Position numbers and translations under genes: made by a program. From assembly GCA_048887225.1 (NCBI GenBank), contig JBHLJY010000003.1, positions 168,395-232,394 on the forward strand: a stretch of 64,000 bases of DNA. Reading direction: 5' to 3'. The stretch is from Candidatus Hodarchaeota archaeon (GTDB lineage: Archaea > Asgardarchaeota > Lokiarchaeia > Sigyniarchaeales > SOKP01). The notes beneath the pieces were generated by a model. It did no database searches, was not told the DNA's origin, and saw nothing but the letters and a program-made list of their open reading frames with translations. Below are positions 31,527 to 38,250 of the stretch, piece by piece (position 1 is the stretch's first letter; each line of letters opens with the position of its first letter).

Positions 31527-32078
31527 TTATATTTCTCCCCATCTCTTTATTCCAATATCTATCCCAATTTGATCAAGTATCCTCCCAACAGTATAATTAA
31601 CTAATTCATCTACGCTTTCTGGCTTTGTATAATAAGAGGGGATTGGCGGAGCAATAATAACTCCTAGTTTTGCGAGTTTAAGCATATTTCCAAGATGTAT
31701 TACACTTAAAGGGCTCTCTCTCACAATAAGTATAAGTTTTCTTTTTTCTTTTATCGTCACATCTGCAGCCCTTGTAATTAAGTTATCTGCATAACCATTT
31801 GCGATGGCAGCTAAAGTTTTCATTGTACAGGGGACAATAACCATAGCATCAATTTTATGTGAACCACTTGCAGGAGGGGCAGCTAAATCATCAGCTTCAT
31901 AATATTTTGTGGAAAATTGATGTAAATCCGCAATCTTATATTCCGTCTCAGCTTCAATCACTTTCTCTGCAGCTTTAGATATAATAAGTTCGGTATTAGT
32001 TCCCTTATCTTTTAGAATTTTAAGTAATTTAACTGCTATTATGATTCCTGATGCACCCGTAATCGCAATTATTATCAA
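31527..32078 (-). CDS. ubiX: flavin prenyltransferase UbiX (prenyl-FMN synthase)
   Basis: 183-aa ORF with a TTG start preceded by GGTGA. Motifs: IAITGASGIIIAVKLL, MVIVPCTMKTLAAIANGYADNLITRAADV, RESPL. Confidence 0.85.
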   Translation of the reverse strand: MIIIAITGASGIIIAVKLLKILKDKGTNTELIISKAAEKVIEAETEYKIADLHQFSTKYYEADDLAAPPASGSHKIDAMVIVPCTMKTLAAIANGYADNLITRAADVTIKEKRKLILIVRESPLSVIHLGNMLKLAKLGVIIAPPIPSYYTKPESVDELVNYTVGRILDQIGIDIGIKRWGEI

Positions 32079-32162
32079 ATTGAATCACCGATGTTAATAC
32101 TATAATTTCGAAAAGATTTTTTATTTTCATTTATGTCTTTTTTTTTTTACGGTGCGACTCAA

Positions 32163-32189
32163 CAAACCTACCTTCTATTATTAGGTTTG
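32163..32189. other. 8-bp-stem hairpin/inverted repeat CAAACCTA-(11 nt)-TAGGTTTG in the ubiX / UbiD-like divergent intergenic region
   Basis: Read directly from the sequence. It lies in a locally GC-richer patch of a 429-nt divergent promoter region. A direct repeat TTTACGGT is also present at ~32147 and ~32217. Confidence 0.25.
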
Positions 32190-32507
32190 GAAACTATGGC
32201 TTGTTGTCATCAAATCTTTACGGTCTTTGGCGCTAGTGCCAATTTATTTTTATTGATACTTTCCTTGATTATTTTTATTAGATTAGCAGAATAGATCTAC
32301 TATTAATCACTATAATCAATATTCTTTATTAAAATCTATTATTATAATAAGATAATTCTGCTTGAGAATAATTAAAATTAGATTTTACAAGCATTATTTA
32401 AATTAATGGATTAATTGATATTATTCAGAATCTTTCTAATAATCGTATCATTTTCATAATAATAGCTAAAAAAAAAATTAAAGAAATAAATTTTTGAGAT
32501 AGCATTT

Positions 32508-33809
32508 ATGGGATTTAGAGAATATTTAGAAAAAATTGATAAGAAAGGACTTCTTCGAAAGGTAAACGTTGAAGTTTCGAAGATATTAGAGATCTCTGGT
32601 ATTTTAAAGGAGAGTGAACCAACCCCCGTAATGTTCAATAATGTTAAAGAATCCGAATTCCGATTGGTTGGCAATGTATTCTGTACTAAGAATGTAATTG
32701 CTTCATATTTTGGTGTGAATCCCACAGATCTCATACCAATGCTTTCTAGTGCAATTGCACAACGCTCAGAACCAGAAGTCATATCAGACGCTCCTTGTCA
32801 AGAAATAATAGAATCAAGCGTAGATTTAGAGAAATTACCAATTTTGTTTCATTGCGAAAAGGATGGCGGAAATTATATTAGTTCCGCGGTTGTTATCACT
32901 AGGGATCCTGATTATGGACAAAACATGGATTTTCATAGAGCTATGCAGTTTTCCAAAGAAAAGTTTGCTACTCGAATAGTTAGAGGACGTCATTTTCATA
33001 AATTTTTAGAAAAAAATGGTGAACTAGATGTTGCTTTTTGTATAGGGAATACCCCTAACGTTCTAATTGCGGGAGCAACTTCTGTGGATATTGGAGTTGA
33101 TGAATTATATATTGCAAATGCTTTAGAGCCAATTAAAGTTGTTAAAGCAAATTCAGTTGATCTCTTAATTCCTGCAGAAGCCGAATTTATCTTAGAAGGA
33201 CGGGTCTATATGGAAGAAAAACATGCTGAGGGTCCTTTTGTCGATTTAACAGAAACATATGATATTGTAAGAGAAGAACCTGTTTTTGAAGTCAAAAGAA
33301 TCACTCATAGAAAGGATGCAATTTGGCAAGCTTTATTACCTGGTGCGCTTGAGCATAAAATATTGATGGGAATGCCACGAGAACCAACCATTTTCAATAA
33401 AGTGAATGAAGCGGGAGTTCAATGCTTAGATGTCAATATAAATCCCGGAGGTTGCTCATGGTTGCATGCAATTGTACAAATTGATAAAAAATCAGAAGAA
33501 GATGGTGAAAAAGCTATTAATGGTGTTTTTGCTGGCCATAGTAGTTGTAAACACGTGTTTATTGTAGATAAGGATATTGATATTTATGACCCATTATCTG
33601 TGGAATGGGCTATGGCAACTCGATTTCAAGGTGATGTCAGAATGGTTATTAAAGATAAAGAACCGGGAAGCAGTTTAGATCCTAGCGCAGAGCCGGGAAC
33701 AAAAATGACAACTAAAATTGGATTTGATTTAACAAAACCACTCATAGCTAAAGCAAAGAGCTTTGATAAATCGGATTTCCCAAAAGTAGACATGAACAAA
33801 TATTTTTAA
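32508..33809 (+). CDS. UbiD-family decarboxylase, likely trans-anhydromevalonate 5-phosphate decarboxylase
   Basis: 433-aa ORF of UbiD-like length and pattern. The specific function is inferred from its neighbours: divergent ubiX and the aconitase-X subunits immediately downstream. Confidence 0.7.
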   Translation: MGFREYLEKIDKKGLLRKVNVEVSKILEISGILKESEPTPVMFNNVKESEFRLVGNVFCTKNVIASYFGVNPTDLIPMLSSAIAQRSEPEVISDAPCQEIIESSVDLEKLPILFHCEKDGGNYISSAVVITRDPDYGQNMDFHRAMQFSKEKFATRIVRGRHFHKFLEKNGELDVAFCIGNTPNVLIAGATSVDIGVDELYIANALEPIKVVKANSVDLLIPAEAEFILEGRVYMEEKHAEGPFVDLTETYDIVREEPVFEVKRITHRKDAIWQALLPGALEHKILMGMPREPTIFNKVNEAGVQCLDVNINPGGCSWLHAIVQIDKKSEEDGEKAINGVFAGHSSCKHVFIVDKDIDIYDPLSVEWAMATRFQGDVRMVIKDKEPGSSLDPSAEPGTKMTTKIGFDLTKPLIAKAKSFDKSDFPKVDMNKYF

Positions 33810-33819
33810 TATATAAGAG

Positions 33820-35022
33820 TTGATAATAATTAAGTTAGAACTAGAAGAGAAAGATATGCTGGAAGGGAAGCATGGAAAAGCTGCACAAAAATCGATGGAG
33901 ATATTAACAACATTAGGCGAAATATTTGATGCTGAATGTATGGTTGACGTTCATAGTGTTCAGATAGCAGGAGTTTCCTATGCTAATCTTGGCGAAGCGG
34001 GGTTGGAATTTCTAAACGAAATGGCTGAAGATGGGAATGTTAGAGTTTTAACAACTTTAAATCCAGCAGGAATGGATCGCCAAAATTGGCAAGCATTAGG
34101 AATAGATGAAGAATTTGCTAAAAATCAGAATAGCGCCATAGATGCCTTTGCTAAGATGGGAATAATTACAACATGTTCTTGTACACCATATCTAATTGGA
34201 AACACACCTCACTATGGACAACATATTGCTTGGGCTGAAAGTAGTGCTGTTTGTTATTCTAACTCAGTTATTGGAGCTCGAACAAATCGCGAGGGGGGAC
34301 CAAGCGCATTAGCAGCAGCTTTAACTGGCAAAACGCCTAAATACGGTTACCATATAGATGAAAATCGTCATGGTCAAATCTTAGTTAAAATAAATGCTCC
34401 AGTTAAAGGCACTGACGAATTTGGAGTATTAGGAAAAATAATTGGAGACAAATTAGTTGAATTAGGAAAAAAAATACCCCATATTACGGGAATTCCTTCC
34501 GCTACTGTTGAAGAACTCAAGTCTTTTTGTGCTTCCATTGCTACGTATGGTGGAACAGCATTATTCCACATGGAACAAATAACTCCGGAGTATAAAGAAT
34601 ATCCTAAACCAAGTGATGTTGTGTTTGAAATTAATCAAGAAGATTTAGATAATACTCGTGCTGAACTTATAGACGACGATCTTGAAATAGATTTTGTAAG
34701 TATTGGTTGTCCTCACGCTTCAATTCACGAAATTGCAGAAATAGCAAGGTTATTAAGAGGAAAAAAAGTAAAGAAAGAATTTTGGATTACTACTGCTCGA
34801 CCTACAAAAAAAATCGCAGATGAAGCTGGTTATTCTAAAATTATTGAAGATGCTGGAGCAAAATTCGCAGCGGACACTTGCTGTGTTGTAGCTCCAATTA
34901 AAGGACGCTTCAAGGGAATCATGGTTGATTCAGCAAAAGCGTGTTATTACGGGCGCGCAAAGAATAATTTTAAAGTAAAAATTGGTACAATCGAAAAATG
35001 TGTTGAGGAGTCCATTAAATGA
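33820..35022 (+). CDS. aconitase X-type phosphomevalonate dehydratase, large subunit (DUF521)
   Basis: 400-aa ORF with DMLEGKHGKAAQKSMEIL at the N-terminus and Cys-containing segments (TTCSCTPY, IGCPHAS, DTCCVV). A 4-nt ATGA overlap joins it to the small subunit. Confidence 0.75.
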   Translation: MIIIKLELEEKDMLEGKHGKAAQKSMEILTTLGEIFDAECMVDVHSVQIAGVSYANLGEAGLEFLNEMAEDGNVRVLTTLNPAGMDRQNWQALGIDEEFAKNQNSAIDAFAKMGIITTCSCTPYLIGNTPHYGQHIAWAESSAVCYSNSVIGARTNREGGPSALAAALTGKTPKYGYHIDENRHGQILVKINAPVKGTDEFGVLGKIIGDKLVELGKKIPHITGIPSATVEELKSFCASIATYGGTALFHMEQITPEYKEYPKPSDVVFEINQEDLDNTRAELIDDDLEIDFVSIGCPHASIHEIAEIARLLRGKKVKKEFWITTARPTKKIADEAGYSKIIEDAGAKFAADTCCVVAPIKGRFKGIMVDSAKACYYGRAKNNFKVKIGTIEKCVEESIK

Positions 35023-35408
35023 AATTAGAAGGAAGAAAAATCTATAAAGGAATTGCTGAGGCAGAAGCGATTGTAACGAAAGATGGAATATCTTTTTATG
35101 GTGGCGTTGACCCTGATACTGGCAAAGTTGTTGAGGTTGGACATGAACTTGAAGGTCAAACCATAACAGGAAAAGTTTTAGTCTTTCCTACTGGTAAAGG
35201 TTCGACTGTAGGATCATACACTATGTATAGAATGAAAAAAAATAATACGGCTCCAGTAGCAATCGTAAATGAACAAATAGATACGATCATAGCAGTAGGT
35301 TGTATAATAAGTGAAATTCCCTGTGTAGATAAAATTGATATTAATTATATTAAAACTGGACAAAAAGTTATTGTCAATGGTTCAGAAGGTACTGTGGAGG
35401 TGGCATAA
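35019..35408 (+). CDS. aconitase X-type phosphomevalonate dehydratase, small subunit (DUF126)
   Basis: 129-aa ORF with GISFYGGVDPDTGKVV, ITGKVLVFPTGKGSTVGS and APVAIVN. Confidence 0.75.
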   Translation: MKLEGRKIYKGIAEAEAIVTKDGISFYGGVDPDTGKVVEVGHELEGQTITGKVLVFPTGKGSTVGSYTMYRMKKNNTAPVAIVNEQIDTIIAVGCIISEIPCVDKIDINYIKTGQKVIVNGSEGTVEVA

Positions 35409-35459
35409 ACGGGAACTGGCAAAGGATATGGTAAGACAATCTTATTTGGAGAACATTTT

Positions 35460-36344
35460 GTGGTTTTTGGTTTTCCGGCTATTGCATCAGCATTAGGCTC
35501 CTATACAACTGCAGATGTTAAAGTCGTTGAAGGAAAAAGCTGGACTGTCAATGATCAGAGACCTGCTACGCCCGGCTATAAAAAAAAGAAATATAGTGAG
35601 GCAATGCAATCAATTAAGAATATAATCGAGCATTTAAAAATAGATACGGAGAGTCAAAAACTTGAAATAACTTTCGCCGGAGATTTAATTGCTGCTAGTG
35701 GAGTTGGTGCTTCTGCCGCTCAATGCACATCTTTAACTCGTGCCTTAAACGATAGTTTTAATTTAAAGTTAGATGATGAAAAGATAAATGAAGCTGCGTA
35801 TGAAGGAGAGAGGGCCTACCATGGAACACCATCCGGTATTGATAACACGGCTTCAACTTATGGTGGATTGATTTGGTTTGTGAAAAACTTAAGTGGGGGA
35901 AAAAATACAATGGAGCTCCTTCAATCACCAAAAAATATACCATTAGTAATCGCAAATTCAGGAATCACGGCCTCAACAACAGAAATAGTTGCTGAAGTCC
36001 GGCGCTTAAAGGAAGCTAACCCAGAAAAATTTGAAAAAATATTTAATGAATATAAGGCATTATCAGAAAAAGCAAAAAAAGCCTTACTTGAAGGAGACAT
36101 CGACACTATAGGAAATTTAATGAATCAAAACCACAAATTACTTCAAAAAATCACCGTTTCAGGGGATATAAATGACAAATTAGTTGATATAGCACTGAAA
36201 AATGGAGCATTAGGTGCTAAAATGACGGGAACAGGGCGGGGTGGTTTGATTATTGCTTTAGCAAAAAACGAAGCAATACAAGAAAATATTGCCAAATCTA
36301 TAGAAAAAGAAGGATATGATGCCTGGAGAACATTGATTGGTTGA
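35460..36344 (+). CDS. mvk: mevalonate kinase (true N-terminus almost certainly upstream, within 35409-35459)
   Basis: GHMP kinase motifs AASGVGASAAQC, GTPSGIDN and KMTGTGRGG. The essential N-terminal motif GKTILFGEHFVV is encoded just upstream of the track's GTG start. Confidence 0.8.
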   Translation: MVFGFPAIASALGSYTTADVKVVEGKSWTVNDQRPATPGYKKKKYSEAMQSIKNIIEHLKIDTESQKLEITFAGDLIAASGVGASAAQCTSLTRALNDSFNLKLDDEKINEAAYEGERAYHGTPSGIDNTASTYGGLIWFVKNLSGGKNTMELLQSPKNIPLVIANSGITASTTEIVAEVRRLKEANPEKFEKIFNEYKALSEKAKKALLEGDIDTIGNLMNQNHKLLQKITVSGDINDKLVDIALKNGALGAKMTGTGRGGLIIALAKNEAIQENIAKSIEKEGYDAWRTLIG

Positions 36345-38250
36345 GTGTGAATTAAAATTGAAAAGTAGTAATGAAATAATTCTGTTAAAGTTAGGTGGAA
36401 GTTTATTAACCGATAAAAATAAATCTTTTTATATTAGAGAAAATGTTGTAAAAAGCGCAGTTCAACAAATAATTGATGCTAATGAAAAATTAATCTTAAT
36501 TCATGGTGGAGGTTCATTTGGCCATCCTCTCGCTAAAAAGTATAGCATTTCGAAAGGACTTGATATATCCATTCCAAATCAAATTCTTGGACTTGCTGAA
36601 ACTCACGAAGCAATGAACAAATTAAACACCTATATAATTAACAGATTTCTTGAAAAAAACAGTCCTGCTATATCAATTCAAGCTTCAAGTATTTTTATAA
36701 AAGATTCTAAGAAAATTTCCACTCAATCCATTGATGTCATTGAGGCAGCTCTTGATATTGGAGTAATTCCCGTTTTATACGGCGATATAATCCTTGATAA
36801 ACAAGATTCATTTTCAATTATTTCAGGAGATCGTATAATTTTGGAATTATGTAAGAACTTACAAAAATTTACAGTTTCAAAAGTTATTTTTACGATTGAA
36901 AAAGATGGTATTTACATTAAGGATAAAAAAGAAAATATCAAATTGGCTTTGGAACTTAATCATAAGGAATTAGACAACATTCGCCTTGCTGAATTAGATC
37001 AAAAAATAGATGTTACTGGTGGGATAGAAGGAAAAATTAATTCAATTAAAGAAATTTCTAAACTAAAAATTCCTGTTCAAATTATAAATGGATTAAAAGA
37101 AAAATTTATATTTAAGGCTTTAAAAGGTTTAGATTTAAGATGTACCAATATCAAAATTAGTACTGTAAAAGCAGAAATAGAAGAAATTCGTGATAGAAAG
37201 CTAGATCATTTAAGAATTCCTATTGAATACAATGTACAGCATTCAGAAAATTATTTTAAATATATTAAGTTAATTCACAATCCTCTTCCAGAAATGGATT
37301 ATGACGAAATTGATCTCTCTATTCAATTTTTTAATAAGGAAGTCTCTGCTCCCATTTGTATTGCTGCGATAACTGGCGGCCACCCCATTTCTAAAGAAAT
37401 TAATCGAATTTTGGCTGAAGCTGCCGAAAAAGAAAAAATTATAATGAGTGTAGGAAGCCAACGTGCTGGATTAGTTGATCCTACTCTGATAGATTCCTTT
37501 AATATCGTAAGAAATGTAGCACCTAGTATTCCCATTATTGGAAATATAGGTATAGGTCAATTAAGTGATCCCAATTTTAATTTAGAGGATTTTAATAAAT
37601 GTATTAAGATGATAAATGCTGATGCCATGGCTATTCATTTTAACGCGTTACACGAATTGGTCCAAGATAAAGGAAATCGCTCTTATAAATATTTCCGAGA
37701 TAATTTCCAAAAAATAAGAGCATCAACTAATACTCCTATAATTGCAAAAGAGGTAGGTGCTGGTTTTAATCAAGAACTTGCCTTAAAACTCAATAATCTC
37801 GGATTTGATGGTTTTGATGTTGGAGGTGCTGGCGGTACTAGTTTTGCTGCTGTTGAATCTCACCGTAATTTCAATTTCAGTGAAAATTTTACTAGAAATC
37901 CCGCAGAAATATTTAGAGAATGGGGCATCCCTACTCCTGTAAGTGTATATTATATTAGAAAAGTCACAAAAAAATTAATAATTGCAACTGGCGGGTTAAG
38001 AACAGGAATAGATATTGCTAAATGTATTTCTTTAGGGGCAGATATTGGTGGATTCGCTTATAAATTTCTTTTATCCTCGTGGAAAGATTATAAAAATAAC
38101 TCAATTTCTCACACTATCAAAGAAATTAGAACATTAAAAAACGAATTGCGCTCTTGTCTATGGTTAATGAACTTAAAAAATATTATTGATTTAAAAGGCA
38201 ACATAAACAAAAGAGTAATTCTTGGTAAATTAAATCAATGGTTAAGTTAA
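36337..38250 (+). CDS. fusion protein: isopentenyl phosphate kinase (N-terminal) + type-2 (FMN-dependent) IPP isomerase (C-terminal)
   Basis: 637-aa ORF. The IPK part (aa 1-~265) has LKLGGSLLTDK, HGGGSFGH and DVTGGIEGK. The IDI-2 part (aa ~285-637) has RKLDHLRIP, PICIAAITGG, GSQRA, AKEVGAG, GGAGGTSFAAVE and ATGGLRTGIDIAKCISLGA. The TTG start overlaps the mvk stop by 8 nt. Confidence 0.8.
   Translation: MVECELKLKSSNEIILLKLGGSLLTDKNKSFYIRENVVKSAVQQIIDANEKLILIHGGGSFGHPLAKKYSISKGLDISIPNQILGLAETHEAMNKLNTYIINRFLEKNSPAISIQASSIFIKDSKKISTQSIDVIEAALDIGVIPVLYGDIILDKQDSFSIISGDRIILELCKNLQKFTVSKVIFTIEKDGIYIKDKKENIKLALELNHKELDNIRLAELDQKIDVTGGIEGKINSIKEISKLKIPVQIINGLKEKFIFKALKGLDLRCTNIKISTVKAEIEEIRDRKLDHLRIPIEYNVQHSENYFKYIKLIHNPLPEMDYDEIDLSIQFFNKEVSAPICIAAITGGHPISKEINRILAEAAEKEKIIMSVGSQRAGLVDPTLIDSFNIVRNVAPSIPIIGNIGIGQLSDPNFNLEDFNKCIKMINADAMAIHFNALHELVQDKGNRSYKYFRDNFQKIRASTNTPIIAKEVGAGFNQELALKLNNLGFDGFDVGGAGGTSFAAVESHRNFNFSENFTRNPAEIFREWGIPTPVSVYYIRKVTKKLIIATGGLRTGIDIAKCISLGADIGGFAYKFLLSSWKDYKNNSISHTIKEIRTLKNELRSCLWLMNLKNIIDLKGNINKRVILGKLNQWLS

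Follow-up and report, generated by a model that had tools for sequence, protein, structure and literature searches.

The window analysed here is a stretch of 64,000 nucleotides from Candidatus Hodarchaeota archaeon (contig JBHLJY010000003.1), and our subject is the junction in it between the gene for an AcnX small (swivel) subunit, a putative phosphomevalonate dehydratase small subunit, and the mevalonate kinase (MK) gene that follows. Both open reading frames (ORFs) lie in one frame (their starts, 35019 and 35460, equal 0 mod 3), separated by the TAA of the upstream gene and 17 sense codons, after which comes a GTG. The letters of the junction are GTG GAG GTG GCA TAA ACG GGA ACT GGC AAA GGA TAT GGT AAG ACA ATC TTA TTT GGA GAA CAT TTT GTG. 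The first-pass annotation of this stretch had reported the shared frame, the single TAA with its 17 codons, and the lack of ATG, GTG, TTG, ATT and ATA among them, and these statements were confirmed in frame; ATC occurs as codon 11. The first of the 17 codons is ACG, a triplet outside the table-11 start set, and the gap between the stop and this codon is 0 nt (TAA ends at 35408 and ACG begins at 35409). TAA closes 39 of the 48 long ORFs in the window and is thus the normal stop here, so that stop-codon reassignment is not an issue. The coordinates of the features at the junction and of the neighbouring genes are listed in Table 1.

Table 1 Features of the AcnX small-subunit gene and mevalonate kinase junction and of its surroundings, in window coordinates.
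Feature	Position	Strand	Evidence or remark
Shine-Dalgarno-like GGAGGTG	35396..35402	+	Within the final codons (V-E-V) of the AcnX small-subunit gene, 6 nt before ACG; conserved in orthologues
TAA stop of AcnX small-subunit gene	35406..35408	+	Directly abuts the MK start position
ACG, proposed near-cognate initiation codon of MK	35409..35411	+	Aligned with ATG/GTG/TTG of orthologues
17 codons, TGTGKGYGKTILFGEHF, MK N-terminal motif	35409..35459	+	TIGR00549 and 2hfs alignments
Motif residue Lys9	35433-35435	+	
Motif residue Glu15	35451-35453	+	
Motif residue His16	35454-35456	+	
Site homologous to the insert of related loci	35453..35454	+	Between the Glu15 and His16 codons; no insert in the window
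GTG, first canonical start-type codon	35460..35462	+	V in orthologues, inside HFVV
Full-length MK coding sequence, 311 codons and TGA stop	35409..36344	+	
UbiX-like flavoprotein	31527-32078	-	Domain matches
UbiD-like decarboxylase	32508-33809	+	Domain matches
AcnX large subunit	33820-35022	+	Domain matches
AcnX small (swivel) subunit gene	35019..35408	+	PF01989 4e-35; NF003046 177.7 bits
Isopentenyl phosphate kinase and type-2 isopentenyl diphosphate isomerase in one 637-aa fusion ORF	36337-38250	+	NF040647 residues 15-272; TIGR02151 residues 287-621

The downstream ORF was identified as a mevalonate kinase by the curated equivalog TIGR00549 (239.8 bits against a cut-off of 163.05). The protein carries the domains GHMP_kinases_N (PF00288) and GHMP_kinases_C (PF08544), and its best matches in the PDB are mevalonate kinases. 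When the translation is extended upstream to the ACG, the TIGR00549 alignment begins at residue 8 (profile position 3), and that with the Leishmania MK structure 2hfs at residue 1 (TGKNIGYGKVILFGEHFVVHG versus TGTGKGYGKTILFGEHFVVFG). The G-K-x-I-L-F-G-E-H motif, encoded at 35430-35456 on the 5' side of the GTG, aligns to 2hfs residues 13-33, and the motif Lys has an established catalytic role in mevalonate kinases. Counted from the ACG, the protein is 311 aa long, which is the exact length of 98 of its 120 closest database homologues, and these homologues begin M/V/L-G-x-G-K-G-Y-G-K-T-I-L-F-G-E-H. Chance therefore does not account for the homology upstream of the GTG, which is real. The profile alignment, the structure alignment and the 311-aa homologues all agree with the first-pass annotation in placing the catalytic N-terminus 5' of the first canonical start codon, so that its expression must take another route. 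The GTG most likely encodes the internal Val18, but gene callers began 294-aa models at this position. The model on record for the window's own contig (P0001) has 301 aa and begins MLFGEH; it was called from the ATC at 35439 (Ile11), so the motif lysine is lost from it.

Our survey took in 148 related genome and metagenome loci, most of them under the label Promethearchaeota, and every junction was read. MK abuts the stop of the AcnX small-subunit gene in 108 of them, and the first MK codon at these loci is ATG (62), GTG (24), ACG (21) or TTG (1), with no other triplet found. The first-pass annotation had suggested that such an alignment might reveal a sense codon in place of the TAA. None was found: a stop, be it TAA, TAG or TGA, is kept at the end of the upstream gene in 108 of 108 abutting loci. 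On the alignment of these junctions, the ACG of the window occupies the ancestral start position and is one transition away from ATG.

The TAA-ACG arrangement recurs in L001, a separate metagenome-assembled genome with 94% amino acid identity, and ~19 more loci from genomes or metagenomes have it too. Four further assemblies with TAA-ACG were located by exact-protein lookup: Logan SRR30758827 (100% identity to the window over 1,282 nt), SRR24270839 and SRR30758841 (95% nucleotide identity each), and ENA ERZ23495120 (94%). The assembly error that had been considered at first is therefore not the explanation, since the same junction appears in independent assemblies. All 21 surveyed ACG loci and the four extra assemblies abut the upstream stop, and MK genes that do not adjoin an AcnX small-subunit gene have TTG (or CTG) starts. 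In L030, L112 and L113, where MK is not preceded by the AcnX small-subunit gene, CTG replaces the usual start consisting of a Shine-Dalgarno (SD) sequence (GGTGA) and TTG. This CTG may be a second kind of near-cognate start; in-frame TTG and GTG codons sit 3-4 codons 5' of it.

An all-ACG set groups with the window, L001 and L076 and includes L003, L009-L012, L017, L078, L081, L083, L085, L086, L090, L100 and L118. Pairwise synonymous divergence (dS) from the window is 0.19 for L001, 0.44 for L076 and 0.6-1.0 for the rest of this clade, and the whole-gene ratio of non-synonymous to synonymous divergence (omega) is ~0.1. Over the 16 codons that follow the ACG, most clade members differ from the window by 5-6 synonymous changes and encode an identical peptide; the single 'non-synonymous' step given by the Nei-Gojobori method in these codons reflects path averaging for TTA to CTT. 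L076 is an exception within the clade, with K5R and Y7F. Codons 2-10 (GTGKGYGKT) likewise keep their amino acids through synonymous change in L152. The preservation of the peptide through synonymous change implies that the codons after the ACG are translated.

A second ACG group consists of L108, L123 and L144 (peptide TGIGRGFGK). Its closest 5' relatives (L050, L146 and L135) have ATG, indicating that ACG arose at least twice. L031 was considered as an independent origin and rejected: it falls with the main ACG clade over its 5' 240 nt, and its 3' part is 98% identical to L016, an ATG locus without the insert described below, so that L031 is a recombinant mosaic. Invariant four-fold degenerate sites amount to just 17% in clade A and 9% over all ACG sequences. 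Not one conserved Thr codon inside the gene is fixed as ACG, which makes up 12% of the Thr codons in the window. An ordinary Thr codon or an irrelevant triplet should drift and the first codon of MK does not, which suggests that it evolves as a start codon rather than as a Thr codon.

The SD sequences upstream also differ with the start codon. The mean SD match is 7.6 nt at ACG, 7.1 nt at GTG and 5.5 nt at ATG loci, and GGAGGTG is present in 11 of 14 distinct ACG contexts versus 4 of 48 ATG contexts. Measured from where the longest SD match ends, the spacing is most often 5 nt across loci. The longest SD at ACG loci is what one would expect of a strong SD that makes up for a weak start, and we regard it as supportive rather than decisive. 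The alignments thus show where the codon lies, that it is inherited within a clade, that the 17 codons are under selection at the protein level, that the first triplet is restricted to AUG-like codons and that ACG is associated with a strong SD.

Taken together, these observations suggest, with a probability that we put at about 0.7, that the ACG is a near-cognate initiation codon of MK, guided by the SD and probably coupled to termination of the upstream gene. Initiation at the ACG right after the stop was among the options raised in the first-pass annotation, and the orthologous junctions, the conserved SD and the start-like evolution of the codon favour it. An ancestral ATG at 35409 would have become ACG by a T-to-C transition. 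The GGAGGTG would hold the ribosome in register, and the ribosome would very likely get there on finishing the AcnX small-subunit gene at its abutting TAA. The initiator tRNA would then pair with ACG with one central mismatch and at reduced efficiency, the first residue would be Met, and the product would be the full 311-residue enzyme with its Lys9/Glu15/His16 motif. Coupling may share the work with de novo initiation, and the weak start may be selected or only tolerated.

Published work offers precedents for several of these steps. Distances of -8 to +10 nt are treated as predictive of termination-reinitiation, for which the last 15 nt of the upstream gene suffice (PMC10666635), and the 0-nt intergenic distance of this co-directional pair falls within that range. 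Archaea commonly show termination-reinitiation coupling (PMC6728339, PMC10666635). In E. coli, a reporter that starts with ACG gives a Met-initiated protein (Hecht et al., bioRxiv 10.1101/063800), and near-cognate codons account for ~30% of the putative alternative initiation sites in Haloferax volcanii (PMC7261190).

It should be noted that several points weigh against ACG initiation. Archaeal reviews name only AUG, GUG and UUG as starts (PMC7531240). The argument from third-base invariance reaches only about p = 0.1-0.2 by itself. The comparisons are phylogenetically non-independent, and raw counts therefore overstate the SD association; in addition, the MK 5' end recombines between lineages, which softens both that association and the count of at least two ACG origins. 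A window-wide scan for SD plus ACG had no power, strong SD sequences being rare (only 2 ATG matches). C-to-U editing of ACG to AUG would leave an identical genomic signature. Furthermore, ACG is a poor initiator in bacteria, and to our knowledge ACG initiation has been directly shown, whether by N-terminal peptide, ribosome profiling or reporter, in no archaeon.

An improbable alternative is pure termination-reinitiation, in which the ribosome would resume without codon recognition and ACG would be a Thr codon tolerated at position 1. The 0-nt spacing between stop and ACG would suit such a process, as would the abutment of every ACG locus on an upstream stop, the use of TTG (or CTG) by non-abutting MK genes, and the frequency of coupling in archaea (PMC6728339, PMC10666635). 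However, the first codon is ATG, GTG, ACG or TTG in 108 of 108 loci although residue 1 is not conserved as an amino acid, and ACA, ACT and ACC were never seen while just 9-17% of neutral four-fold sites are invariant. Known reinitiation, moreover, still needs a start codon. The termination-reinitiation proposed in the first-pass annotation is thus compatible with the spacing and may well contribute to ACG initiation, but its codon-independent form is disfavoured by the restriction on the first codon.

The first-pass annotation had also raised readthrough of the TAA, which would yield a fusion of the AcnX small subunit and MK with ACG read as Thr. The two ORFs do share a frame with a single stop between them, and the two enzymes act consecutively in the pathway. 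The conservation of that stop in all 108 abutting loci, where it alternates between TAA, TAG and TGA (TGA in L017 of the ACG clade), is nevertheless the opposite of a conserved readthrough context, and TAA is the standard stop of the genome. The 120 closest homologues carry only GHMP domains and none an AcnX domain, some relatives have MK away from the AcnX small-subunit gene, and the evolution of the codon is that of a start and not of Thr. We consider such a fusion highly unlikely.

Initiation further downstream, at the ATC at 35439 (301-aa model) or at the GTG at 35460 (294-aa models), would give a truncated MK. Both triplets belong to the table-11 start set and were chosen by gene callers (P0001, P0002), and the window has a weak GGAG 8 nt ahead of the GTG. 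However, codons 2-10 keep their amino acids through synonymous change and are hence translated; this selection at the protein level tells against the ATC start that had been suggested earlier. Products of either start would be without the motif Lys9, and that of the GTG also without Glu15 and His16. In addition, ACG relatives that bear the insert described below have the Ile codon (ATT/ATC) out of frame with the gene body, so that no start could be made from it there. A downstream start therefore has very little probability in our view.

The remaining explanations fare worse still. C-to-U RNA editing would turn ACG into AUG in the mRNA and so permit canonical initiation, and a genomic ACG at an ancestral ATG, conserved and recurrent, is what edited starts of plant organelles look like (mentioned in PMC9845219). 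The stronger SD at ACG loci, however, is better explained by a weak start codon, and we judge editing to be most unlikely here. We know of no description of mRNA C-to-U editing in Archaea. Although loss of a canonical start is a common first step of gene decay, a recent pseudogene, or a sequencing or assembly error at the ACG, is scarcely credible for a codon found in 25 loci or assemblies, with dS up to about 1 in the clade at omega ~0.1, a 311-codon frame intact in every one, an otherwise complete pathway operon and no relaxed selection seen.

About 45% of the related loci carry, at the same end of the gene, an insert that is absent from the window. It lies exactly between the Glu15 and His16 codons (ILFGE/HFVV) in 58 of ~143 surveyed loci and in L154 and L156, and it is 31 nt long, or 30 nt in four loci, with 45 distinct 31-nt junction sequences. 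The insert-bearing loci include L003 (2546-2576), L002, L005, L009-L012, L014, L017, L025, L029-L031, L033, L037, L040-L044, L046-L049, L051, L053-L056, L065 and many of L069-L148. The insert shifts the reading frame or brings in stops, many copies carrying stop codons, and its removal rejoins ILFGE and HFVV in all 45 distinct sequences. The frame of the 15 codons before it is intact and conserved in all insert-bearing loci. In the sister lineages this 5' stretch would be a mini-exon preceding a 31-nt intron-like insert.

The structure of the insert was read on a gapless 79-column alignment (A1). It comprises a 9-bp hairpin beginning one nucleotide into the insert, a short helix of exon-1 GCG with insert CGC, and a distal exon-exon helix (AAGACCAT/ATGGTCTT). 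The central helix (columns 20-22 with 50-52) is always paired, its fourth pair being G-U in 13 of 41 sequences, and pair 21-51 changed from C-G to U-A three times, with one U-G intermediate. Paired cells amount to 90% versus 42-46% in slid controls, and 8 pairs show compensatory double changes. Folding z-scores range from -5.6 to -0.6, so the structure rests on covariation and not on energy. The motif called bulge-helix-bulge (BHB) has a short central helix and two 3-nt bulges, with cleavage after the second bulge nucleotide (PMC4090602). On either side of the central helix is a 3-nt stretch, and the boundaries defined by the protein come after its second nucleotide (AA/A and AT/C). The 5' site (AA/A) sits in a clean 3-nt bulge; the 3' site (AT/C), though symmetrically placed, is part of an internal loop, and the form is accordingly relaxed and HBh'-like.

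The flanking exons bear a corresponding imprint. Their synonymous sites are locked to pairing only in insert-bearing genes (Thr ACC/ACT; Gly GGC, 32/35; Gly GGT, 32/35; Leu CTT, 31/35), where 7.7 of the 8 positions of the helix pair, compared with 5.1 of 8 in insert-less genes. In the window and L001, which have no insert, the flanking codons are relaxed, with GGA rather than GGC and F-G-F rather than Y-G-L. An nhmmer profile of the insert returned only noise from the window (best E = 0.5), and Rfam held no matching family for three insert-bearing loci. No 311-aa database protein was identical to the exons of an insert-bearing gene, the best being 97-98% identical.

We consider it quite probable that the insert is a new BHB mini-intron, predicted to be spliced by the endonuclease; Asgard archaea are reported to carry a broad-specificity (alpha-beta)2 EndA with an L1 loop (PMC5829648). 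In the papers found, archaeal mRNA BHB introns were reported only for cbf5 in Crenarchaeota and for one Haloferax 5' untranslated region (PMC2738675, PMC7714728), and our literature search for an MK or Asgard mRNA intron returned no prior report. Ribosomal bypassing was set aside, since the take-off codon GAA mismatches the pre-landing codon (AAT, TAT, TAA, TAG or AAA) and no stop follows take-off; it is also countered by the covarying helix, by which both junctions come to lie in BHB geometry. Passage through the insert with a single frameshift is unlikely, as it would add ~10 non-conserved residues inside ILFGE-HFVV.

The 5' end of the gene appears to be mosaic. L031 versus L016, L153 versus L154 and L155 versus L156 are 93-100% identical downstream and only 66-81% identical at the MK 5' end (first ~60-240 nt). 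In the near-identical pairs L153/L154 and L155/L156, overall identity is ~95% and falls to 70-80% in the first 60-120 nt, where the differences cluster. This clustering indicates allelic replacement of the 5' segment, and loss of the insert by simple precise deletion is unsupported in these recent cases. Start-codon type and insert thus seem to have been swapped between lineages by recombination.

Gene models at insert loci are affected as well. MK models of 309-315 aa beginning MERPFFLAKF...KRNHFVVYG take their start from an ATG that lies out of frame within GGATATGG and continue across the insert, so that the catalytic motif is replaced by unrelated residues (P0007, P0012, P0013, P0017, P0021, P0023, P0049, P0073, P0077, P0088, P0093, P0106 and P0114). 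Public MK gene models are therefore systematically wrong in this group, with 294- and 301-aa truncations at ACG loci and 315-aa chimeric N-termini at insert loci, and pathway reconstructions may consequently score MK as defective.

The MK gene belongs to a compact operon (31527-38250) in which successive genes overlap or abut, the UbiX-like gene lying on the minus strand. The AcnX small-subunit gene overlaps the large-subunit gene by ATGA (35019-35022), and an exact lookup of the window's AcnX small-subunit protein found nothing on record. The listed TTG start of the ORF downstream of MK overlaps the MK stop by 8 nt, and an alternative in-frame TTG is present at 36358. The gene set appears to be that of the archaeal modified mevalonate pathway.

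On present comparisons, the ACG case would be a known kind of phenomenon, a non-canonical start codon, in a new variant, and the insert of the sister genomes would be the more surprising feature. If ACG initiation is true, a conserved ACG start in Asgard archaea extends the accepted archaeal set (AUG, GUG, UUG) and provides a natural substrate for start-selection stringency in a lineage whose initiation factors most resemble the eukaryotic ones. An ACG start of an essential enzyme would be new for Archaea, and our literature search showed no earlier essential archaeal gene with a natural ACG start. The 31-nt insert looks like only the second coding-sequence BHB intron family in Archaea, and the first found in Asgard by literature search.

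A broader reading that joins the two features is tentative, and as a whole we think it rather unlikely. The ACG would be a selectively maintained start in Lokiarchaeia-like Asgard archaea, read by the eukaryote-like aIF1/aIF1A/aIF2; the strong SD and coupling would tune it to low MK output; and the 15-codon 5' segment would serve as a post-transcriptional control point, interrupted in sister alleles by a spliced, frame-shifting 31-nt BHB intron in the manner of XBP1, and this in the archaea most closely related to eukaryotes.

Near-cognate initiation known elsewhere resembles the proposed ACG start in using a single-base variant of AUG in a favourable context, read by the initiator tRNA with reduced efficiency and giving a Met-initiated product (bioRxiv 10.1101/063800 and, in part, references listed in PMC9845219). 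Unlike those cases, the ACG here would be the sole start of an essential archaeal biosynthetic enzyme, conserved in a clade, and an SD together with the abutting stop, not scanning and Kozak context, would determine its position. Archaeal and bacterial termination-reinitiation (Huber et al. 2019; PMC10666635) likewise involves same-strand operon pairs whose stop and start lie -8 to +10 nt apart; the final 15 nt of the first gene, sufficient in known coupled pairs, carry the SD here. The characterised coupled pairs, however, use canonical start codons, and coupling at the MK junction is a prediction. The ACG-to-AUG editing of plant organelles shares a lineage-conserved genomic ACG at an ancestral ATG position, but requires mRNA C-to-U editing machinery.

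The closest counterpart of the insert is the BHB intron of cbf5 pre-mRNA (Watanabe 2002; PMC2738675), which is also a short coding-sequence intron with a relaxed BHB and a patchy distribution marked by gain and loss. Both occur in lineages reported to have an (alpha-beta)2 endonuclease bearing the L1 loop (PMC5829648). The predicted MK intron differs in its gene, in its phylum (Asgard/Promethearchaeota) and in its length of only 30-31 nt. The outer helix on its 3' side is replaced by the distal exon-exon helix, and its splicing is a prediction from the aligned sequences. The insert also recalls the unconventional splicing of XBP1/HAC1: most of its copies shift the reading frame, as does the XBP1 intron, which is 26 nt long.

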